From: Candidatus Aegiribacteria sp.
GTDB taxonomy: Bacteria > Fermentibacterota > Fermentibacteria > Fermentibacterales > JCC-6
Assembly (NCBI GenBank): GCA_023138735.1
Contig: JAGLOY010000064.1
Span: 15,567-79,566, forward strand
Length of the DNA: 64,000 nt
Direction: 5' to 3'
In this document: piece after piece, positions 2,156 to 29,382 of the stretch
Numbering within the stretch: the stretch's first letter is position 1
Layout of the letters: the number at the start of each line of letters is the position of its first letter
Notes under the pieces: model-generated
What the model was told of the DNA's origin: nothing
What the model saw: the letters and a program-made list of their open reading frames with translations, nothing else
The model's database searches: none
Program-made: the position numbers and the translations under genes

Positions 2156-3340
2156 ATGGTGATGAACAAGCTTATCTGTTCGAAGTGCATGGCTGTTCAT
2201 TTCGTTGAGGGTGAGACCGATGGGAGCTGCCCGACCTGTCATCTTGATGAACATCATGTCTACAACTTTCGCAACAGCGATGAATTTCTGGAGAAGGAAG
2301 TCCCAAGGGTACTGGAGGAGCGCCTGGACCTGGGTTTGCAAGGGCTTGCGGGCGGATTGAGCTTTGTGATAATCAGCACCGAACCGGACAGGCAGCGCGA
2401 AGCGGTTGCGGAGTTCCTGCGATACACCGATTTTATCTATTCCGACGGCTTCGAGGATGACAGCTTTCGGACATGTGTTCTGGAGGCTGCCGATTCCCCT
2501 GCGGTTCTTATCCGATCACGGAAGGCGGGGACGAATCCCTTCTCGAGCTTCAACACCGCTCCGAAAGCCGGGCATCTTCCAAATACACGCCTTGAGACGT
2601 TTGTCTTCTCCACGCCCGATCTTGGCAGGTATTCATCGATTCAAAGTTCAAGGGGTGTGCATTTCCAGGAGGAGTCCATTCTGGATACGGACAGTATGCT
2701 TTTTACACAGACAATCCCTTCGCATTTCCATGGCTGTTCCTTTGGTTTCGTCCAGTGGAAGGGTGAATCCGGGAACTTCAGGACACCGGGTTCTTCAGGC
2801 CTGGACTGGGAGTTTGAAAAACCTTCATCTGCACATCTGAACCGCATCTTCGAGCTTGATCATACAGCGACCAGGGTTCATGCGCAGCAACGTGATGAGG
2901 CGATAATCGAGTTCATGGAACTGACCAACTACAACTTCTCCCTGGCTATCTATGTGAAGGGTTTCAACTCCATCACAAGTGTTGCAAGGCTCTCGGAGAA
3001 GGACTTCGCGATGGTCTTTACATCGGGGATACTGCCTGACAACGGGCAGGAGGATGTGGGACCCACGGAGCAGTTCATCAGGAACTACGGCACAAGGGTG
3101 CACCATCTTGCATTCAGAACCGAGGAGATCGACTCAACTTACAAAGCGCTGATCAATGACGGGATGGAGTTCCTGCTGGAACTTGTAGGATCACCCGAAG
3201 AGGGTTTGCAGCAGACATTCTCTCTGGGATCCCCGAATACGCTCCTTGTGAACGAGTACATTCAGAGGTACGGCGGTTTCGACGGATTCTTCACAAGCGG
3301 TAATGTAACCCTGCTGACCGAATCTACGGGCAGACAGTAA
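2156..3340 (+). CDS. VOC-superfamily (HPPD/glyoxalase-like) protein with N-terminal Cys4 zinc ribbon
   Basis: The N-terminus has CSKC...CPTC. The C-terminal block VHHLAFRTEEIDSTYKALINDGMEFL is typical of vicinal-oxygen-chelate modules. Confidence 0.35.
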   Translation: MVMNKLICSKCMAVHFVEGETDGSCPTCHLDEHHVYNFRNSDEFLEKEVPRVLEERLDLGLQGLAGGLSFVIISTEPDRQREAVAEFLRYTDFIYSDGFEDDSFRTCVLEAADSPAVLIRSRKAGTNPFSSFNTAPKAGHLPNTRLETFVFSTPDLGRYSSIQSSRGVHFQEESILDTDSMLFTQTIPSHFHGCSFGFVQWKGESGNFRTPGSSGLDWEFEKPSSAHLNRIFELDHTATRVHAQQRDEAIIEFMELTNYNFSLAIYVKGFNSITSVARLSEKDFAMVFTSGILPDNGQEDVGPTEQFIRNYGTRVHHLAFRTEEIDSTYKALINDGMEFLLELVGSPEEGLQQTFSLGSPNTLLVNEYIQRYGGFDGFFTSGNVTLLTESTGRQ

Positions 3341-3350
3341 CCGTTTTCAA

Positions 3351-4085
3351 ATGGCGGTATCTCGTATAAAGTGGAAGCATGAGACCTGGAACCCGGTCAC
3401 CGGTTGCAATCCGGTTAGCGAGGGGTGTGAGCATTGCTACGCCAGGGGTATTGCCCTGAAACTTCAGGATATGAGCGTTGCAAAGTACAGGGACGGGTTC
3501 ACAGTGACTGTGCATGAGGATGCGCTGGAAGAGCCCATCCACTGGAGGAAACCGCGGCTCGTTTTCATGACATCCATGGGAGACCTGTTCCATCATGCGG
3601 TGCAGGACGAGTTTATTTTACGCGTGTTCGATGTGATGCGCCGCTGTGACAGGCATGTTTTTCAACTTCTTACGAAAAGACCGGAACGTATGTCTGAACT
3701 CTCGGGGAGGATATCCTGGCCTTCAAATGTATGGGCGGGGACGACCGTGGAGAACAGGAAGGTTTACCAGCGTCTGGAGAGCCTTCGCAAGGTTGACGCG
3801 GTAGTCCGGTTCGTATCCTTCGAACCTCTGCTCTCGGATGTAAGCGATGCGGACCTTGCAGGTATCCACTGGGCTGCGGTTGGCGGGGAATCCGGGCCTG
3901 ATGCCAGACCCATGAAAATAGAGTGGGCCCGAGCTCTGCGGGATAAGTGCATTGCCGAGGGTATTTCTTTCTACTTCAAGCAGTGGGGCGGGGCGCACCA
4001 CTCCTCCGGGGGAAGAACACTGGATGGCAGGATATGGGACGAAATGCCGGAGCCTTCAGGTCAGCTTAGACTGGACGGTTTTTAG
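3351..4085 (+). CDS. phage Gp37/Gp68 family protein (DUF5131)
   Basis: The N-terminal W-N-P-V-T-G-C...EGCEHCYA signature is diagnostic of this phage-derived family. No other phage genes are nearby. Confidence 0.7.
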   Translation: MAVSRIKWKHETWNPVTGCNPVSEGCEHCYARGIALKLQDMSVAKYRDGFTVTVHEDALEEPIHWRKPRLVFMTSMGDLFHHAVQDEFILRVFDVMRRCDRHVFQLLTKRPERMSELSGRISWPSNVWAGTTVENRKVYQRLESLRKVDAVVRFVSFEPLLSDVSDADLAGIHWAAVGGESGPDARPMKIEWARALRDKCIAEGISFYFKQWGGAHHSSGGRTLDGRIWDEMPEPSGQLRLDGF

Positions 4086-4087
4086 AG

Positions 4088-4303
4088 TTATTCAGTCCTG
4101 CACCAGAAGTATCTGGCGGCGGTTGAATCAGCTTCGATCGCGATGGCTGCCGTGAAATCGGGGATCGACTTAATGAAATCTCCCATTCTAGAATATGCTG
4201 CTCCACGGTTATAAATAGCATCAACATCCGATGAATCCGTCATTATTACAAAAGTGAAATCCTCGATAGTATGAGGAGTGTTGCCTATATCCTTAGGAAG
4301 CAT
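4088..4303 (-). pseudogene. short TPR-repeat ORF, possible remnant of a disrupted TPR gene
   Basis: The 71-aa product has one clear TPR unit (AIYNRGAAYSRMGDFIKSIPDFTAAIAIEADSTAARY). It is too short to be a full TPR protein. Confidence 0.25.
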
Positions 4304-4459: not shown

Positions 4460-5125
4460 ATGAAAAAATCTGTTGGAATTATCCCGCTATCCGGATTCAT
4501 GGGTGCTGGTCTTATAGCTGCAGGTGCTTTGATAGCAGCGGTTGCCTATCGGGGTAGTGCAGGTGAATCCTACTGTATTCTGAATCACTTCATCTCGGAG
4601 CTTGGAGATGTCGGTGTCTCCAGGCTGGCAGGAGTCTTTAATGTTTTTCTGATAGCAGGAGCCCTCTGTCTGACCGTATTTCTTGTTGGTCTTGCACGGC
4701 TTATCGGGGGGCGTATAATGTACCTGTTCCTGTTAACAGGACTTGTTACCGGTATCTCCGGGGCTCTTGTCGGTATTTTCCCGATGAATCATTTGAAACC
4801 TCATCTGATTGTGGCAATGCTGTTTTTCGACTCCGCCATGATAACAATAATATTGTTCTCCGTATGGGTAATACTGACGCGGCACAAGGTGCATCCCCGA
4901 TGGCTTGCTCTTATGGGTTTGATGCCTGCAGCATGTTTATTCAGCTTTATTTTTCTCAGAAAACCAATTTCCGAACATGGGCCTCTGCTTGCAATTCCAG
5001 AGCATTTTACGCGACCTGATTTCTGGCCAACCGCTGCGATGGAATGGTCAGTGCTGATATCCATTCTGACCTGGGTTATCGTAGTTGCACTGACTATTCG
5101 GAAGGAAGTGCGCTGCAGAACATGA
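4460..5125 (+). CDS. DUF998-like polytopic membrane protein
   Basis: The start at MKKSVGIIPL lies within the ORF beginning at 4271. The product has six hydrophobic helices. Confidence 0.5.
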   Translation: MKKSVGIIPLSGFMGAGLIAAGALIAAVAYRGSAGESYCILNHFISELGDVGVSRLAGVFNVFLIAGALCLTVFLVGLARLIGGRIMYLFLLTGLVTGISGALVGIFPMNHLKPHLIVAMLFFDSAMITIILFSVWVILTRHKVHPRWLALMGLMPAACLFSFIFLRKPISEHGPLLAIPEHFTRPDFWPTAAMEWSVLISILTWVIVVALTIRKEVRCRT

Positions 5126-5217
5126 ACCTGGAATCCCACCCGCGTACGGATTAATTCAGTATCAGCATCTTTGTCACAACCTGCATATTCCCCGAAGAAT
5201 CTCGATCAGCCCTGTTC

Positions 5218-5940
5218 TCATTCATTAAGATCGAGGAAAGCCTTTACTTTCTCATTTTCAGGATCGATGCTGAGCGCTACCCTGAGGATTCCGATAGCAG
5301 TGTCTCTGTGTCCTTTTTTTATGTACGCAACGGCAAGTTTCAGGCGTGCTTCGGTGAGTCCAGGATTAATCTCGATAACCTTCTCGAGTTCCTTGATCGC
5401 ATTGTCATATTCTTCCCGCCTGATGTATGCATTCCCTAGAAGTGTTCTGATATCCAGATAATCAGGAGCGATCTTCAGGGCTTTGTTGAACTCAAGCATT
5501 GCATTGTCTGTTTCCTCTATCTCAAGGTAGAGGATACCCAGCTCCTTGTGGGCATTTGCTATTTTTCCCTTCATACCCGCTGTAAGATGCCCTTCTACAT
5601 TCTCGAGCTCTGCAGCCTTGTTGTACTCTGAGAGGACGCTGGTGTATTTGCCCATTTCACTGTACGTAATTGAAAGGTTGAGATGCGCTTCGATATAATC
5701 CGGATTCAGTTCCAGCGCCTTCACGAAGGCATCAACCGCCATTCTGTAGGAGCCCTGCATACAGTACACTATTCCGAGCTGATTGTGTATGTCGGAATAC
5801 TCAGGCGCTTCTTCGCATGCTTCCAGGAGGAGTTCGATGGAGTCATCGAATCGTTCCTGATCTATCAACACCTTACTTCTTCTGATAATACCATCCATAT
5901 CAGGATCCATGATACCTCCAGCTTCAGCAGCCATATGCAT
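5218..5940 (-). CDS. TPR repeat protein
   Basis: It has multiple 34-aa TPR units, for example AIKELEKVIEINPGLTEARLKLAVAY. Confidence 0.7.
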   Translation of the reverse strand: MHMAAEAGGIMDPDMDGIIRRSKVLIDQERFDDSIELLLEACEEAPEYSDIHNQLGIVYCMQGSYRMAVDAFVKALELNPDYIEAHLNLSITYSEMGKYTSVLSEYNKAAELENVEGHLTAGMKGKIANAHKELGILYLEIEETDNAMLEFNKALKIAPDYLDIRTLLGNAYIRREEYDNAIKELEKVIEINPGLTEARLKLAVAYIKKGHRDTAIGILRVALSIDPENEKVKAFLDLNE

Positions 5941-17689: not shown

Positions 17690-19384
17690 ATGGAGAGAAT
17701 GATGAAAAATGCTGCAATAACTGTATTTATGGTGTTAATGTGTGCCGCTGTGGTAAGCGGTTACTCCGGGGCAACTTTCAGAGAAATCCTTCCCGGTGGA
17801 ACGGTTGACCTGGAGTACGAAGGTACAGAGTCGTTTGAATTGAGCGCCTCGATAGACATTCACACCGGCAACGATTCTTCAGGTGTGATCTGGCATTACA
17901 GTGTTGTATCAGGTCTTACTCAGAAGATTGTCCCTATCGGTTACAATGCCGGTTATGTATTCAACGGAGGATGGTACGGCGGCGGCAAGATGTTCGAAGG
18001 TATTGCAGGGAACGGGGTCCCGATCTGGGAAATCGCGGAACCGGCTACCGGAACCAACGAATACTGGACAAACTGGGGAACCGGGACAGCTGCAGCAGAG
18101 AGCAGCGACATCTTCTATTCAATTATCAGATACTCTATCTACAACGATAACGGAACTCCTGGGGTTCCGGGTGATGACTGGCTGGTTTCGGACAACAACT
18201 GCCTGATAAGCTGCTACGATAATTCATCGGCCACACCGCTCTGGACCTATACCGGTACGGACAGCATCGATGCCGGCTCGGTGGATAATCCCGGCAGGTT
18301 CATGTGTTCCGATGATGGAACTGTTCTGGCAGTCGGCTGCCGCATAGATGGTTTTATGTCGGTGGTTTTCTTCAGCAACAGCAGCAGTGTGCCGATATCG
18401 GTATACGAAGACCCATCGGTCACGAATATGCCCAGACAGATCAGGCTTACGGAAGACGGTTCGAAGTGCATCTTCCGCACGTCCGTGCTGTACAGAGTGG
18501 ATACAGCCACCGGGGTTCTTGAGGATTCCTATAATCTGGGTGCTTCAACAGACTGTTTCGGCGTATCCTCCGATGGTTCCGTAGTGGCTTACGGATTTAC
18601 TTCAATACGTGTTGCAGTATGGGATGGGTCGGCATACAATTTCGAATGGGCCAGATCTATTAGCGGTTATTATGCAGGCGGCGCTGCGGTTGCGGATGAT
18701 AATGCCACCATATATTTCGGATGTTACAAGAGTAACTACCTGACAAATCGCATAACCCGGCACGATATCTCCAGCTCGGACCCGCTCTGGACCTACGATT
18801 ACCCAACAGGTGGAGGAAGTTTCCAGGATGTAGTTGAGTGGATGGAATGTTCTGAGGATGGAAGATGGGTAGTGATTGGTTCATGGGGATGCCAGACGGG
18901 CGGGGGACCGGAAGTCTGCGTTATGGATGACCTGTACCCTTCATCACCTGCCTATACAATAGACACGCCCGGATCCATTTTTCATGTGGATATCACACCG
19001 GACGGCAACTACATATCCGCATCAGGCAAGCATGTGCACGCCAATCAGATGGGGTCAGGCGCCGATGTTTACTTTGCCGAGATCGATCAGACCGGAATAG
19101 AAGGGGGATCACAGCAATTGTTTACAATCCCTGTTGTCAACCGGGTTTATCCTAACCCTGCCTGTGGATCCGTTGCCTTCAGTTTTGTTATTCCGGATCA
19201 GGGACAGGTTTCGCTGGACATCTTCGATATCAGCGGCCACAGAGTCATGAACTTATTCGAGGGTGTATTGGTTCCCGGTGAGCACGATATTGCTGCGGAG
19301 ATCGACCTTGGCAACGGCTTGTACTTCTACAGATTGTCGGCCGGGGGAGGTTCAGCTGCAGGTAAGCTGATTATCAGCAGATAG
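17690..19384 (+). CDS. secreted beta-propeller (PQQ/WD40-like) protein with T9SS C-terminal sorting domain
   Basis: It has a signal peptide. TPLWTY/DPLWTY blade motifs recur. The C-terminus NGLYFYRLSAGGGSAAGKLIISR is a T9SS-type sorting domain. Confidence 0.6.
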   Translation: MERMMKNAAITVFMVLMCAAVVSGYSGATFREILPGGTVDLEYEGTESFELSASIDIHTGNDSSGVIWHYSVVSGLTQKIVPIGYNAGYVFNGGWYGGGKMFEGIAGNGVPIWEIAEPATGTNEYWTNWGTGTAAAESSDIFYSIIRYSIYNDNGTPGVPGDDWLVSDNNCLISCYDNSSATPLWTYTGTDSIDAGSVDNPGRFMCSDDGTVLAVGCRIDGFMSVVFFSNSSSVPISVYEDPSVTNMPRQIRLTEDGSKCIFRTSVLYRVDTATGVLEDSYNLGASTDCFGVSSDGSVVAYGFTSIRVAVWDGSAYNFEWARSISGYYAGGAAVADDNATIYFGCYKSNYLTNRITRHDISSSDPLWTYDYPTGGGSFQDVVEWMECSEDGRWVVIGSWGCQTGGGPEVCVMDDLYPSSPAYTIDTPGSIFHVDITPDGNYISASGKHVHANQMGSGADVYFAEIDQTGIEGGSQQLFTIPVVNRVYPNPACGSVAFSFVIPDQGQVSLDIFDISGHRVMNLFEGVLVPGEHDIAAEIDLGNGLYFYRLSAGGGSAAGKLIISR

Positions 19385-20474: not shown

Positions 20475-21884
20475 CTACCTGATGACCGTTACACTTCTGG
20501 TGGACAGTTCGTCACCCTCCACTATGCAGAGGAAGTACATTCCCGAAGCAAGTTCAGAAACATTCCAGTTAACTGACTGGCAATCGCCGGGAATTCCGGA
20601 AAAGAGAGTTTGCACAATCCTGCCGGAAAGGTCGAGAACAACGAGTTCAGCGTGATTGGAACCTTCGATAATCAAAGTAGTGGATGACCTGACGGGATTC
20701 TCTGCAAGAATGCAGGATGTGTTTTCAGGAGTATCGCCGACAGAGCCGCCTGTGATACCCGTCTGGATCAGCCAGGGGTCATATTCGACGAATCTGCTCA
20801 CTTCATCACCGCTGCCCGGACCTATACCTCCTGGACCGCTTGGATCACCCCACCAGTTCAGTGTGGCATCGAATGAGAACCAATCAATCGAGCTTCTGAT
20901 GCCGAATCCATCGTTATCCGTGAAATTGCAGTAGTGAACGGAAGCGCCCCTGGAATAGGGTCCTTTGGCGCTTCCGCACCCGATACCGTCCCTGGTGTTA
21001 TTCGCAAAAGTTGAACTGTCAGCATTCAAAGTGCCGTAATAAACATGTAATCCATCACCAATGTTACTAAGAATATCACACTTTGTTATAGTAAGAAGGC
21101 CTCCCTGAAGCGTGATCCCCGCACCCCATAGAGAAGTGTTGCCAGCTATCAGGTTTTCATGGAGTATCGTGCCCGATGCGTTAAGATGATATATACCACC
21201 GCCGAACCAGCCGGATTGATTATCGATGATCTGATTACCGATGATGAGTGTATTTCTTGTGCAGGTTATACCGCCGCCGTAGTCAACGCTGAAGTTGTCA
21301 TGGATGATATTGTTTGAAACAACAGGCATACCAGTGCCGCCACCGGTAATACAGATCCCTCCTCCGCTTGTGAGATCCTTTATTCCATGCAGCAAAGGAT
21401 TGCCAGCACTGTTGTATCGGATGGTATTTTCATCTATGACAACGCGGGAACTGGTGCAATAGAGTCCGCCCCCGGCGTTAAGCGCAAAGCAGTCTTCAAT
21501 GATGTTGCCGGTTATAAGGGGAGAGGATACACTGCATCGGATACCGCCGCCCTGTTCGGCTGCCCCGTTCCTGATGGTGAAACCGCTTATAACCGTTGAT
21601 GTATCCACAACCGGGGAGAGGAGAGTGATAACGGTTCCTGAGCTGTCCCCGTCGATTATTGTCTCGTTCGGCCCCTGCTCGGAAATAAGTGCGAGATCCG
21701 CTACATCCGGCCAGATGATGTTTTCCAGGTAGGTTCCCGGAGCAACCAGGATGGTATCCCCGGATTGCGCGCTGTCCAGGGCTTCCTGTATGGTGCTGCA
21801 GTCACCTGGAACTTCGATAATTCCGGCAGCAGGGGAGCCGCATACGATCAGAATGGTCAACTGCAAGAAATGACGCATATACAC
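20475..21884 (-). CDS. right-handed parallel beta-helix repeat protein with T9SS C-terminal sorting domain
   Basis: GGGI/NNII beta-helix repeat motifs recur. The C-terminus is GMYFLCIVEGDELSTRSVTVIR. Confidence 0.65.
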   Translation of the reverse strand: MYMRHFLQLTILIVCGSPAAGIIEVPGDCSTIQEALDSAQSGDTILVAPGTYLENIIWPDVADLALISEQGPNETIIDGDSSGTVITLLSPVVDTSTVISGFTIRNGAAEQGGGIRCSVSSPLITGNIIEDCFALNAGGGLYCTSSRVVIDENTIRYNSAGNPLLHGIKDLTSGGGICITGGGTGMPVVSNNIIHDNFSVDYGGGITCTRNTLIIGNQIIDNQSGWFGGGIYHLNASGTILHENLIAGNTSLWGAGITLQGGLLTITKCDILSNIGDGLHVYYGTLNADSSTFANNTRDGIGCGSAKGPYSRGASVHYCNFTDNDGFGIRSSIDWFSFDATLNWWGDPSGPGGIGPGSGDEVSRFVEYDPWLIQTGITGGSVGDTPENTSCILAENPVRSSTTLIIEGSNHAELVVLDLSGRIVQTLFSGIPGDCQSVNWNVSELASGMYFLCIVEGDELSTRSVTVIR

Positions 21885-22077
21885 TGGACCCTCCGTTTCA
21901 TACTGATTATGTATGTAATATACGAACTGCTACTTATACATTCATTCGATTGAACAGACAGTTATTTTCTCTCACTTGCTTTGATAGTTGGGTACTACTA
22001 TAGTAGACTGGTCATATAAGTGTAAAGGTATTAACATCTGTTAGTTGATTGTTCATTAACTCAGAAAGGAGGTGTCT

Positions 22078-23082
22078 GTGGGAAAACTGACTCTTATAGT
22101 TCTACTGTCCCTTGCTGCCGTTGCTATGGCAGCTAACAGGGTGGTGCTTTTCGAGGAGTTCACACAGACCGGTTGAAGCAGCTGTGCAAGCAGCGCGGGC
22201 GCTGTTAAGAGTATGGTCAACGGGTATCTCACCAATGATGAGATTGCCCCAATGATCATTTTTGCGAACGGTCCAGCCGGGAATGCCTTTAATTCCGGCA
22301 GAGATGCTTTATACAATTGGGGTTACACCCCTACGTTCCAGACGGATGGAATCCTTCAGAGAATCGGGTGGTCCCAGTCGATAGTTCAGGGCCACATCGA
22401 CACCAGACTGGCAGTTCCAAGCTATCTGGATATCTCAGTAGATATCTTTGGCAATGCCAGCGGAGGAATCGCCGTATACACTCTCATTGCGGAACAGGAC
22501 CTCGGAGTCAGTCCTCTCAAGCTCTATTCCGCTATCGTCGAGAGCGGTGACATTGCCTCCAGCGCGTACGGCTACTATGCCGGCCAGGTAATGGCATGGG
22601 AACCGAGAGCATGGCCTGCAGGAGCCACGGGTACATCGATTAGCTTCACAGGTCCTTATCCCGAAACTATCATCATCGAGAAGCCCTATACACTCGATCC
22701 CTCGCAGCACTCATTCGATATGCTCGATGTCGTATCGTTTGTACAGCTAACAACCGGTAACCACGAAGTGATGAACGCTCATTTCATGGATCTTCCGGAC
22801 ACCGATCCTTCCGGTATTCACGAAGGTTCTACCGAAGCTGTGAATTCGATAAGTATCGGCATCAGCAATAACCCGAGTAACGGTTCTTTCAACATCAATA
22901 CAATTGTACCGTCCGGAGTTACCGGAACCATCGCGATCTATGATCTTTACGGAAGGATCGCAAGAGAGTTCGAAGCTGGCGGAATCACACCGGTCGTACT
23001 CGAAGAGACGGGTGTTTATTTCATTCATCTGCTCACGAGTACAGGTGAAACTGTTATAGAGAAGTGCACGGTTATTCGCTGA
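22078..23082 (+). CDS. secreted thioredoxin-fold-like T9SS cargo protein with an in-frame TGA in a G-U-S-S-C motif (candidate selenoprotein)
   Basis: AAAGGAGG precedes a GTG start by 5 nt. The signal peptide GKLTLIVLLSLAAVAMA lies only upstream of the TGA at 22174-22176. The same frame continues into ORF 22213-23082, which ends in a T9SS sorting domain. Confidence 0.55.
22189..22206 (+). other. stem-loop 12 nt downstream of the in-frame TGA (7-8 bp stem, GG-containing apical loop), a bacterial SECIS-like candidate
   Basis: agcagcgc-gg-gcgctgtt forms the stem-loop. The apical loop is about 20 nt after the UGA. Confidence 0.3.
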
Positions 23083-23183
23083 ACGAAGTTTCCATCCCCT
23101 CCCTCAGTGAACGGGCCGCTCTCTCCTCGGGCGGCCCGTTCCGCAGACTTGACATCCTTAAAAGACCAGTCTAATAGTACTGC

Positions 23184-23801
23184 ATGAAAGGAGGCAGAAT
23201 GAGTCAGGAAGTCGCACAGAGAATACTGGAAAAAGGTGCCCAGCTGGTGCGGGAGAATGGTTTTAACAATACAGGTCTGAACGACATACTGAAAGCTGCC
23301 AGGATCCCAAAAGGTTCCTTCTATTACTACTTCAAAAGCAAAGAGGATTTCGGGTTGAGAATGATCGAACACCTGCACAGCGGGATAAGCAGGTCATTCT
23401 ACCAGTACCTCGCTGAGGAGTCGGACACACCGCCGCTTGAATTACTCAGGTCATTCTTTGCTGGATTCAGAAAAGCATTCATGTCTGATGAGCAGAAATG
23501 CGGGTGCCCCATAGGCAACATCTCCCAGGAGATGGCTGCGACGAACCCGCGGTTTCGCGAGAAGCTGAATGCTGTCTTCTCCGACATCATGAAACCTGTA
23601 TCGCTATGCCTTGACCGGGCTGTCGAGCTGGGCGACCTGGATCCCTCAATAGATACGGCCGAGATGGCGGAATTCATCATCAACAGCTGGCAGGGGGCAC
23701 TCATCTACCTCAAGGTCGCAGATTGCGAGAGACCTCTTGTTCTTTTCGAGAAGTTCGTGTTCGAGAATCTGCTTCCCTTTTACGTTTCAGAGAAGGAGTA
23801 A
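23184..23801 (+). CDS. TetR/AcrR family transcriptional regulator
   Basis: An N-terminal helix-turn-helix (TGLNDILKAARIPKGSFYYYFKSKEDF) is present. Confidence 0.8.
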   Translation: MKGGRMSQEVAQRILEKGAQLVRENGFNNTGLNDILKAARIPKGSFYYYFKSKEDFGLRMIEHLHSGISRSFYQYLAEESDTPPLELLRSFFAGFRKAFMSDEQKCGCPIGNISQEMAATNPRFREKLNAVFSDIMKPVSLCLDRAVELGDLDPSIDTAEMAEFIINSWQGALIYLKVADCERPLVLFEKFVFENLLPFYVSEKE

Positions 23802-27651: not shown

Positions 27652-29382
27652 TCAGGGCAGCAGCAGAAGGTTTGTTACGCTGCTTGCCGAACCTGCAAGC
27701 CCCCGCGCGAAGTAGATTCCCGGCGCAGCAGGATTGCCGTCTTCCAGACAGCCGTTCCAGGTCACCATTGCACTGCTCTCGCTGTTCTCCTCGGCGCTGA
27801 GCCTGCGAACCAGGCGTCCATTTATGTCGAAGATATCAACAGCCGGAGCGCCTGAAATCCCGCTCCAGTTAAGTTGCAGAGTCACAGCAGAAGTAAACGG
27901 ATTCGGTGTTGCCTGAATGCTCAGCGTTTGCGCCGCAGGGGTTTCAAGCTCAATCCCCTGGCTGTCACCGGCGCTGAAAATGTAATCCATACTTCCAGTG
28001 CTGGATACACTTGCGACAACGAGAATGACCTGATCATCAGGATCGGCGAGCCCTGTTATCTCGAGGGTGCCTGCCTGTGTAGTTTCATTCAGCACCATGC
28101 GCAGGACTTCGGTCGTATCGTTATCGTACAGTGCAAGACCCCACACAGCGAAGTTGTTAGTGTCATTGCCATCAAAAGACAGCTGCAGGTTTTGAAAGCC
28201 CGAAAAAGTCTGAAAGCGGTAGTAGTCGGTTGCCCAGTGTTTTACTGTTCTGGAAACATTCGAGACTGGATAGGTCGAATAGGTACCCATTACGTTGAAT
28301 GGGGGCAGGTCATCGCCGATGTAGCCGTAGCGGCCATCCTCCAGACTTATGTCATCCAGGAAGTTTGCCACTGTCCAGTCTGCGAAGACGTCTGCTACAT
28401 CCTCCGTATAACCGAAATCATCCAGCACCTGCTCGTACCCGGCGATCGAGTTTCCAGCTTCGTGTACTGCCGCGTATATGCTGGGATGGCCGCCGTACTG
28501 TTCGAAGAAATAGAGCGTCCAGAGGTAGGTCTGGATGTAATCGGACCAATTACCGTCCCAGATTGTCAGATCGTTGTCCGGGGCGCTGTTGAACCCTGAA
28601 ATATTGTCCGGATTTCCGTAGAACCACATGGCCAGCTCCGCGAGCCCCTCGTCCACCCAGGACTCCTCGTTATCATCGTACTTCCAGTGGATCATGTGTT
28701 CGAATTCATGGGCGGCTACCGCAAGCATATAATCGCCGCTCGGACCCCCTGAACTAGTGGGATTGAGGTAGAGAACTTCGCATTCGTTACTGTGATATGG
28801 AGGGAAGGCTCCATCCGGATATTCATCGAACCAGAAGAAGAACCCATCTGCAGCTATTCCGAACTCGAACCACATCAAATAGATACGTATGTCATCATCG
28901 AGTTCATCGGGCGGTTCCCCGAACGCGATGCTGTCTATTTCGTAGATTCCCTGAGTCGGGTAGGGTCCGATGCTGCTGTTCTCCCATCGCTCAAGTATCG
29001 CGTCAACATCGCTCTGGAAAATTGAGATTCCCCACTCCAGATCTCTGACCACTACGTATCCGCGATCGCTCTTTCCACGAACTGTACAGACATGCTGCTC
29101 GAAATGCGGTGGCATTGGGTCAAAAACCCACAGCCACCAGATCCAGGAATCGCCCACCTGGGGATTAACGGGGGGTTCTGTGGGAAGGTCATGCTCGGGC
29201 AGGTAGACATCTGGGCCGACCTCATGAGGCAAAGGCACGGGTACATCGCGCAGATACTGTGGAGCGAAATCGGTGTCCTCAGCGGACAGAGTACCCTCTA
29301 AGCCAGGGAATATTCCGAATCCAGTGAGCAGCAGTACTGCGATTGTGATGCCGAAAGGAAACTGATGCAACTTATACAACAT
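27652..29382 (-). CDS. secreted HExxH zinc metallopeptidase with T9SS C-terminal sorting domain
   Basis: A signal peptide is present. The motif is AAHEFEHMIHW, followed by a downstream Glu. The C-terminus is a T9SS-type sorting domain. Confidence 0.55.
   Translation of the reverse strand: MLYKLHQFPFGITIAVLLLTGFGIFPGLEGTLSAEDTDFAPQYLRDVPVPLPHEVGPDVYLPEHDLPTEPPVNPQVGDSWIWWLWVFDPMPPHFEQHVCTVRGKSDRGYVVVRDLEWGISIFQSDVDAILERWENSSIGPYPTQGIYEIDSIAFGEPPDELDDDIRIYLMWFEFGIAADGFFFWFDEYPDGAFPPYHSNECEVLYLNPTSSGGPSGDYMLAVAAHEFEHMIHWKYDDNEESWVDEGLAELAMWFYGNPDNISGFNSAPDNDLTIWDGNWSDYIQTYLWTLYFFEQYGGHPSIYAAVHEAGNSIAGYEQVLDDFGYTEDVADVFADWTVANFLDDISLEDGRYGYIGDDLPPFNVMGTYSTYPVSNVSRTVKHWATDYYRFQTFSGFQNLQLSFDGNDTNNFAVWGLALYDNDTTEVLRMVLNETTQAGTLEITGLADPDDQVILVVASVSSTGSMDYIFSAGDSQGIELETPAAQTLSIQATPNPFTSAVTLQLNWSGISGAPAVDIFDINGRLVRRLSAEENSESSAMVTWNGCLEDGNPAAPGIYFARGLAGSASSVTNLLLLP

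Follow-up and report, generated by a model that had tools for sequence, protein, structure and literature searches.

Most bacterial selenoproteins are cytoplasmic or periplasmic, and the type IX secretion (T9SS) route normally ends with cargo released or anchored on the cell surface. In the literature we found no report of a selenoprotein delivered by type IX secretion to the cell surface or medium, and no indexed paper linking Fermentibacteria with selenocysteine (Sec). The closest described selenoprotein family is GOS_C, a family with a thioredoxin-like (Trx-like) fold from ocean metagenomes that comprises 74 Sec and 312 Cys sequences (Zhang & Gladyshev 2008, PMC2398784). It corresponds to NCBIfam NF045500, "Omp28-related selenoprotein," and a 2026 review lists it, giving UxxC as its motif, under the name "Hypothetical protein GOS_C." GOS_C sequences read VVMVEDFTGLN-U-PYCP around the Sec residue, with one subgroup reading SEMFTSST-U-GPCASAE. 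A second point of reference is hemin-binding protein 35 (HBP35) of Porphyromonas gingivalis (PDB 5Y1A), whose disulfide reductase activity depends on a CxxC pair and whose hemin binding maps to residues 135-344 (PMC2907840). The family reported here was undescribed in the literature consulted, deep-Sep, BSepDB, and the 2026 review, and the last three made no mention of T9SS, FG-GAP, or DUF1223 selenoproteins.

The gene under study lies at positions 22078 to 23082 on the forward strand of a 64-kb stretch of Candidatus Aegiribacteria DNA (here called the window), and sequence and comparative data indicate that it is very probably a real selenoprotein gene with a secreted product of 334 residues. 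Its frame is a single open reading frame (ORF) interrupted only by a TGA at 22174 to 22176, running on through an ATG at 22213, with the translation MGKLTLIVLLSLAAVAMAANRVVLFEEFTQTG*SSCASSAGAVKSMVNGY. The full coding sequence would thus have 334 codons, including a Sec codon at position 33, and ends at a TGA stop at 23080 to 23082. By direct reading of the sequence, a Shine-Dalgarno (SD) sequence, AAAGGAGG, occupies 22065 to 22072 and is separated by a 5-nt spacer from the GTG at 22078, where translation is predicted to start. A second in-frame GTG, at 22072, overlaps the SD site. Sequence features predict a signal peptide, MGKLTLIVLLSLAAVAMA, at 22078 to 22131, with a Lys-bearing n-region, a hydrophobic core, and an A-M-A cleavage motif followed by A; ANR comes directly after it, and the N-terminus is laid out like a Sec-type signal peptide. 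An equivalent hydrophobic N-terminus is present in all full-length homologs. The first-pass annotation had located both the signal peptide and the SD-GTG pair 5′ of the in-frame TGA, and all of these elements are where it put them. The TGA stands in the context RVVLFEEFTQTG-TGA-SSCASSAGAVK, in which it would encode the first residue of a U-S-S-C redox motif (22174 to 22185) within F-T-Q-T-G-U-S-S-C, an assignment to which the conservation of the TGA, the Cys homologs, and the alignment with the Sec column of GOS_C all point. On the basis of boundaries transferred from a structural model of the Cys homolog P0037, a Trx-like domain would span 22135 to 22416 (about residues 20 to 113), followed within approximate boundaries by a middle beta-sandwich domain at 22417 to 22800 (about residues 114 to 240). 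A type IX secretion C-terminal sorting domain (type A CTD) at 22867 to 23079 completes the protein.

Public annotation does not reflect this layout. Gene callers give either a 289-residue protein from the ATG at 22213 to 22215, which is Met46 of the real protein and is wrongly taken as the start, or a 276-residue protein, as in the NCBI record P0001 ("Candidatus Aegiribacteria sp."), which is 100% identical to the window protein and starts 3′ of the TGA. An annotated start after the TGA had also been noted in the first-pass annotation. A protein search returned 129 homologs, of which the best 120 were inspected for length and coverage. Nearly all of these are about 288 residues long with 87% query coverage, that is, cut at the same place, and about 115 of the best 120 matches, NCBI records included, are truncated at the Sec codon. 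Only three of the best 120 are full length, and their sites read TISCPSC, TITCGPC, and TTTCGPC. The family is therefore systematically misannotated, with gene callers cutting the gene at the Sec codon, and since the truncated records lack the signal peptide and the active site, it has been invisible as a family of redox proteins.

The gene-caller predictions do match an alternative reading with two translation units, in which a short ORF (22078 to 22176) precedes a separate protein with its start at or beyond ATG 22213 and no export through the Sec translocon. A weak AAGAG lies 3 nt 5′ of that ATG, and HBP35 of P. gingivalis is reported to give shorter cytoplasmic products from internal starts (PMC2907840). 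However, the Cys homologs are continuous proteins across the point of the TGA, and the stretch of 12 codons from the TGA to the ATG shows conservation both in its protein sequence and in its RNA structure. The downstream product would, moreover, be a protein with a T9SS sorting domain but no signal peptide, half of its thioredoxin fold, and no active site. We consider two separate units very unlikely indeed, and a single protein translated through the TGA the better reading of the locus.

We next looked at the conservation of the TGA. We scanned one genome per species and obtained 41 loci, all from bins assigned to Fermentibacteria, Aegiribacteria, Sabulitectum, or Hyd24-12; in a tblastn search with the 334-residue query, the 41 genome loci match across the TGA, spanning query residues 1 to 334. 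Upstream of the called genes, these loci have a start codon, a signal peptide, and a strand of the form [AD][ED]RVV[LM][FW][EG][EY]FTQTG, followed by TGA. Counting tandem paralogs, 45 gene copies, drawn from about 35 Fermentibacteria bins, share the TGA at precisely this codon, and 44 of the copies are distinct within a 54-nt segment. The copies have 41 to 93% protein identity, and protein sequence is kept on both sides of the TGA. At three genome loci (L017, L019, and L020), Cys (TGC or TGT) takes the place of Sec, and three database proteins (P0029, P0037, and P0046), two of them additional to those loci, also have Cys at this codon. The existence of Cys homologs, anticipated in the first-pass annotation, is thus confirmed, and the motifs are T-C-G-P-C in P0037 and P0046, which contains the thioredoxin motif itself, C-P-S-C in P0029, and C-S-A-C in L020. 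With 45 Sec forms to 3 Cys forms among the genome loci, the Sec form is the rule in this family.

Pseudogenes are typically recognized by an in-frame stop such as the one found here 32 codons into the ORF, and the annotation by NCBI and other pipelines is confined to the part 3′ of it; both would fit a functionless gene or a TGA produced by sequencing or assembly error. Against this, all 45 copies, assembled independently and up to about 59% divergent as proteins, have the TGA at this codon, so an assembly error is excluded. No copy has a stop elsewhere, only the L036 copy is frameshifted (further downstream), and the amino acids on either side of the TGA are under purifying selection. Orthologs with stops at varying positions, which would have marked a pseudogene, were not found. 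Nor is the code itself reassigned, given that TGA is the commonest true stop in the window, where it ends 32 of the 61 nonoverlapping ORFs kept, this gene included; the first-pass annotation had likewise read TGA as a true stop elsewhere in the window. Because the TGA is conserved and is at the same time the commonest ordinary stop, sequencing error, pseudogenization, and a reassigned code can all be set aside; the chance that the gene is a pseudogene or an artifact is vanishingly small, and conservation has effectively refuted this explanation.

The candidate upper stem-loop of a bacterial SECIS (bSECIS) element, AGCAGCG-CGGG-CGCUGUU, is found inside the coding sequence at 22189 to 22206, supported by its folding energy, by covariation, and by RNAalifold. 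Its arms (22189 to 22195 and 22200 to 22206) enclose a loop at 22196 to 22199, and the hairpin starts 12 nt after the TGA. The stem has 7 bp, of which RNAfold draws 6, in agreement with the 7 to 8 bp proposed in the first-pass annotation, and folds alone at −8.2 kcal/mol. The loop had been placed about 20 nt from the UGA; this holds for its start, 19 nt after the UGA, but not for its G residues, which lie 23 to 25 nt from the U of the UGA. Published constraints for bSECIS elements are a loop of 3 to 9 nt, a stem of 4 to 16 bp, a G in the first two loop positions, a distance of 16 to 37 nt from the UGA, and a minimum free energy of ≤−7.5 kcal/mol (PMC13188914, Fig. 2 legend). The window hairpin, with its 4-nt CGGG loop (G at position 2), 7 bp, 19-nt distance, and −8.2 kcal/mol, lies within all of these limits, and the comparison with a bacterial SECIS model suggested in the first-pass annotation is in its favor. 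Rfam scans of the window and of 22100 to 22300 returned no SECIS family, a negative of little information, since Rfam apparently includes no general bacterial SECIS model. A lower stem (GGUUGA with a downstream CAAC) was considered and dropped, as its partner column corresponds to a third codon position and varies freely.

In a single-sequence fold of the region, the structure was not unusual relative to shuffled sequences (z = −0.86), and the hairpin alone is therefore unconvincing. Comparative data make it convincing. Across the 44 distinct TGA-bearing sequences, the seven-pair stem (alignment columns 19 to 25 with 30 to 36) is paired in 91.6% of cells, and four of the seven pairs have changes on both sides. 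At most 1 of 500 shuffles reached the observed value on four of five measures, while the fifth, the count of further pair types, was unremarkable (173 of 500 shuffles). Slid controls were paired in only 16 to 66%, and RNAalifold independently predicted the same stem. The main switch is between G-C (10 sequences) and U-A (32 sequences). The G-C clade, to which the window belongs, encodes the peptide S-S-A-G-A-V with a CGGG loop, and most of the others, with U-A, encode S-S-W-S-A-V with a GGUC loop, so that the amino acids differ across the switch while the helix stays. Further exchanges are A-U to G-C in L029 and L028_4226 and C-G to U-A in L033, and L012 and L014 have a hairpin shifted by one register, CACAGC-AGGC-GCUGUG. 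Sec forms retain the stem-encoded peptide SS[WA][SG]AVK; the Cys forms lack this hairpin and show no constraint on the peptide encoded there, which points to constraint at the RNA level in the Sec forms. The CGGG loop of the window differs from the GGUC of most relatives, a point that we counted against the selenoprotein reading.

The hairpin resembles SECIS elements of the Escherichia coli fdhF type in lying within the ORF and beginning 11 to 12 nt after the UGA, and the commonest loop of the family, GGUC at +23 to +26, presumably matches that of fdhF in all four nucleotides and very nearly in its distance. It differs from them in that the family stem has no bulged U, the window loop is CGGG, and the stem doubles as codons for S-S-A-G-A-V. 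With its 44 distinct SECIS elements, cleanly aligned and covarying, the family also provides a data set that could improve selenoprotein gene finders.

We asked whether the lineage encodes the machinery for Sec insertion. There are no sel genes within the 64-kb window, and a tRNA-Sec was found neither in the window, where ARAGORN returned tRNA-Cys only, nor in 43 loci. When all fetched loci were scanned for TGA-bridged ORFs, one was identified in L012, L014, and L015 that is convergent with the family gene and lies about 50 nt past it. It reads MDYAACAG-TGA-AGKMAPGRL and continues for another 334 codons. This gene is selD (TIGR00476, 342.6 bits against a cutoff of 125), and its TGA falls on the UxxK position where Sec is known; a SelD that itself contains Sec can be made only by a functional Sec system. 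L015 also contains selA (TIGR00474, 489.7 against 267.9) and yedF (TIGR03527, 148.5 against 110). Two metagenome contigs with close relatives, L048 (240 kb) and L049 (245 kb), have the full arrangement, in the order yedF, Se/S carrier, yedE, class V aminotransferase; a gene for a CGS-U protein and the TGA form of the family gene; and selD(U), selA, selB. Among these, yedE and the gene for the cysteine-desulfurase-like class V aminotransferase were called only in L049, and the selB located by the family members encodes the SelB beta-barrel and winged-helix domains. Taking the related contigs L012, L014, L015, L048, and L049 together, Sec-containing selD, selA, and selB adjoin family members, from which it follows that the lineage has the protein machinery. 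This would add an uncultured candidate phylum, Fermentibacteria, to the lineages that use Sec.

The UGA might instead be read through or recoded as something other than Sec, by a near-cognate Trp or Cys tRNA or by a context-dependent suppressor. The sel genes are found in related contigs and are absent from the 64-kb window itself, and each of the 61 candidate Sec sites examined, selD included, has a U directly 5′ of its UGA, which SelB-dependent decoding has not been described as requiring and which hints at an additional context signal. On the other side, the residue aligned with the site is Cys in homologs and Sec in GOS_C, the hairpin is spaced from the UGA as SelB-binding SECIS elements are and shares their G-rich loop, and selD, selA, and selB adjoin family members, with selD showing the same kind of TGA and hairpin at a well-known Sec position. 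We regard non-Sec recoding as very unlikely. In the mechanism that we favor on sequence and comparative grounds, the SECIS hairpin at 22189 to 22206 would recruit SelB with Sec-tRNA(Sec) at UGA 22174, such that Sec is inserted and translation does not terminate.

The reading of the protein as probable T9SS cargo is supported by its C-terminal match to TIGR04183 (residues 264 to 325), at 24.4 bits against a cutoff of 23. TIGR04183 is matched by all 24 family members scanned, and the family profile matches the CTD of gingipain RgpB in the PDB; PF18962 scores 20 bits on the window protein, under its cutoff of 27. At least three other CTD proteins are encoded nearby, at 17690 to 19384, 20475 to 21884, and 27652 to 29382. 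Judging from these domains, we predict that the signal peptide would direct the product to the Sec translocon and that the type A CTD would then direct it to type IX secretion. Altogether, the conserved TGA, the Sec/Cys pair, the covarying hairpin, the homology with GOS_C, the fold, the sorting domain, and the machinery in relatives support the earlier interpretation of the gene as encoding a secreted selenoprotein.

Other candidate selenoproteins were seen along the way. The window contains a second one at 161 to 1375, an FG-GAP/VCBS repeat protein, and at least three other families with T9SS sorting domains combine a conserved in-frame TGA with a hairpin 3′ of it whose loop is GGU or GGC: the FG-GAP/VCBS repeat family that includes 161 to 1375, a family with a C-U motif that probably forms a beta-propeller, and one with U-S-x-C that probably forms a beta-helix. 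The small secreted CGS-U family is also present. In comparison with the invariant U at the 61 candidate Sec sites, U precedes the TGA in only 5 of 31 ordinary TGA stops in the window. It is conceivable, although we would put the chances at somewhat below even, that Fermentibacteria (Fermentibacterota) export a whole set of selenoproteins via the T9SS and decode Sec with an extra, undescribed context rule. If true, U before UGA would be a possible new context rule that could likewise improve selenoprotein gene finders.

In one clade, the Trx-like selenoprotein and the CGS-U protein are encoded inside a selenium island (yedF, Se/S carrier, yedE, selD, selA, and selB). This position suggests a possible role in capturing or reducing selenium at the cell surface, as opposed to general redox chemistry, and the two proteins could take part in such a process. 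We know of no dedicated bacterial selenium uptake system, and the presence of selD, selA, selB, yedE, and yedF as neighbors in some genomes makes a connection of a surface redox protein with selenium acquisition open to testing.

We compared the family with known systems at the level of both structure and sequence. Structure prediction was carried out on the Cys homolog P0037, which is 50% identical to the window protein. The model has a beta-strand at residues 22 to 28 and Cys32 at the start of a helix at residues 33 to 37, and it matches thioredoxin folds, in keeping with the Trx-like layout (a strand, then U-x-x-C at the start of a helix) that had been read from the sequence in the first-pass annotation. 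When the protein and the family profile were searched against PDB sequences, only the CTD was matched, and the fold was found by structure comparison. By homology with this model, the active site U33-x-x-C36 would sit where strand beta1 passes into helix alpha1, as does the catalytic CxxC of thioredoxin and HBP35. HBP35, a T9SS cargo, has a similar fold, with Trx-like and beta-sandwich domains, but it is only 14% identical to the window protein, was not matched in PDB searches at the sequence level, and has CxxC where the window protein has UxxC. By analogy with HBP35, the window protein is probably a cell-surface or extracellular selenol/thiol-disulfide oxidoreductase, a functional assignment that we hold with fair confidence; hemin binding cannot be inferred from HBP35. 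A clear relation at the fold level was also seen with DUF1223 (PF06764; PDB 2AXO, Agrobacterium Atu2684) and Omp28 (PF11551; PDB 2R2C). The Pfam models for DUF1223 and Omp28 gave no match to the window protein at an E value of ≤1, and their weak matches to family members (15 of 24 and 10 of 24, respectively) were all below the Pfam gathering thresholds. Both of these families lack a T9SS domain and are absent from the table of selenoprotein families in the 2026 review.

The relation to GOS_C extends to the sequence profile. An hhalign comparison of the present family profile with a profile of seven GOS_C sequences gave 98% probability and an E value of 2.3e-13 over 221 columns at about 18% identity, spanning both the Trx-like and the beta-sandwich domain. 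Since hhalign superposes the Sec columns, with residue 33 on the Sec of GOS_C, the Sec site of this family is homologous to that of GOS_C. The NF045500 model, by comparison, scored 18.5 bits on the window protein against a cutoff of 200 and covered only the N-terminal 84 residues, and its matches in 13 of 24 family members (best E value, 2.6e-4) were all below cutoff. On the evidence of these profiles, the family is a distant, new, lineage-specific branch of the selenoprotein family GOS_C/NF045500. The two share a Trx-like fold, the motif [VL]-x-E-[ED]-F-T-x-x-x-U-x-x-C placed directly after strand beta1, a SECIS element within the ORF, and, as predicted for the present family, a signal or anchor region at the N-terminus. 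They differ at their C-termini, where GOS_C proteins have Asp-rich DxDxDG/DNC repeats and members of the present family have a T9SS type A sorting domain, and in their origin, with GOS_C coming from surface-ocean bacteria and the present family from anaerobic Fermentibacteria (41 of 41 loci in the scan of one genome per species). They also differ in the residue used at the redox site, which is mostly Cys in GOS_C (312 to 74) and mostly Sec in the genome loci of the present family (45 to 3).

A second candidate selenoprotein of the window is suggested by the sequence at 161-1375 on the forward strand, where an in-frame TGA (458-460) bridges a signal-peptide-bearing ORF (MKYICILLFVAAAV...) and an ORF of FG-GAP/VCBS repeats, the C-terminal end of which is a type IX secretion (T9SS) sorting domain (CTD). 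The context of the candidate selenocysteine (Sec, U) reads ...ITMAYG-U-CTGATNPQVVDYNNDG..., and 3′ of the TGA lies an 8-bp hairpin, AAUCCACA-GGU-UGUGGAUU (476-494). Homologs in three loci (L042, L044, and L046; 37 to 74% identity) keep the TGA and the hairpin, together with the protein sequence on either side of the TGA. Most database homologs are cut off at the position of the TGA. Full-length homologs carry E-T, A-W, or G-C where the window has U-C, so that a clean Sec/Cys pair has not yet been seen in this family.

In the thioredoxin-like T9SS selenoprotein family, whose member in the window is encoded at 22078-23082, two or three paralogs can also stand in tandem, and every copy in such an array has a TGA and a hairpin of its own. 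Three copies were found in L005 (at 3052, 4253, and 5445), L009 (3097, 4244, and 5402), and L011 (3037, 4148, and 5286), and two copies were found in L028 (3091 and 4226) and L038 (2537 and 3591). In the second L028 copy, the hairpin is UUAGUGGCU-GGUC-AGCCGCUAA, with a 9-bp stem in which three pairs are changed, one of them on both sides. The genes of L017 and L019, which encode Cys at the Sec site, are without the GGUC hairpin. A different 9-bp hairpin, GUGCUUAUC-CUCA-GGUAAGUGC, with no G in its loop, was observed in both (L017, 3077-3098; L019, ~3107-3128), at about the distance from the Cys codon that separates the GGUC hairpin from the TGA; it could be a chance occurrence, a remnant, or the product of a different constraint. 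One further copy (L036, 3001-3959; bin AS27yjCOA_107) has both TGA and hairpin, and its frame is broken after ~146 codons, reflecting either an assembly frameshift or a true pseudogene.

Four more candidate Sec families were recovered, each kept in at least two loci and each with a hairpin loop containing G. The first (L022, 2142; L026, 2120; L041, 2137) has the motif ...DVLC-U-SSPLWSVTGVGG together with a signal peptide and a T9SS CTD. The second (L030, 3091; L041, 890), with ...G[SA]-U-S[ST]CGGGGVHC, has a T9SS CTD at 33 bits, and its Gly/Asn-rich repeats suggest a beta-helix. The other two are small and secreted: one (CGS-U; L012, 1212; L015, 2393; L049, 8034) reads ...KPFCGS-U-Y..LRYQLVAY and had no match to any family, and the other reads ...NPFCH-U-NGDARRHQV (L017, 4896; L019, 4898).

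The CGS-U protein is also part of a selenium island that includes a member of the thioredoxin-like family (L015, 1335-6789; L048, 8269-15560; L049, 5997-15571; also L012 and L014). The island begins with yedF, an Se/S carrier (PF11823), yedE, and a class V aminotransferase, the last two in L049 only, and continues with the CGS-U protein, the thioredoxin-like T9SS selenoprotein, selD (Sec form, opposite strand), selA, and selB. N-terminal to its AG-U-AGK active site, the Sec-containing SelD carries a Cys-rich extension, ...CPCPNTSC.R.GNC.[ED]CR[DE]FH..., encoded on the reverse strand (L012, ~4000-4120; L015, ~5060-5230; L049, 11903-12169).

T9SS CTD proteins are dense in the window, numbering at least five with both candidate selenoproteins included (among them 17690-19384 and 488-1375 on the forward strand and 20475-21884 and 27652-29382 on the reverse). 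The upstream neighbor of 22078-23082 is a T9SS CTD protein on the other strand; downstream are a TetR regulator and then a secreted protein with a CBM96 domain. A perfect 11-bp inverted repeat, GAACGGGCCGC...GCGGCCCGTTC (23109-23141, forward strand), starts 27 nt 3′ of the stop of 22078-23082. In the interval that separates this gene from the TetR-family gene (23184-23801), the repeat, which lacks a U-run, is probably a transcript-end hairpin.

At every candidate Sec codon, in the window and in loci L001 to L049, the base directly 5′ of the UGA (22173 and 457 in the window) is U, a possible rule for which we found no description among the consulted papers. Six other families, including selD, have it at all 16 sites (GGT, TGT, TCT, GCT, and CAT). 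In the thioredoxin-like family it holds in 45/45 cases, the preceding codon being GGT in 43 and otherwise ACT or TAT, even though, in the rest of these genes, only 26% of Gly codons are GGT. By comparison, T precedes the ordinary terminal TGA in 5 of 31 cases in the window.
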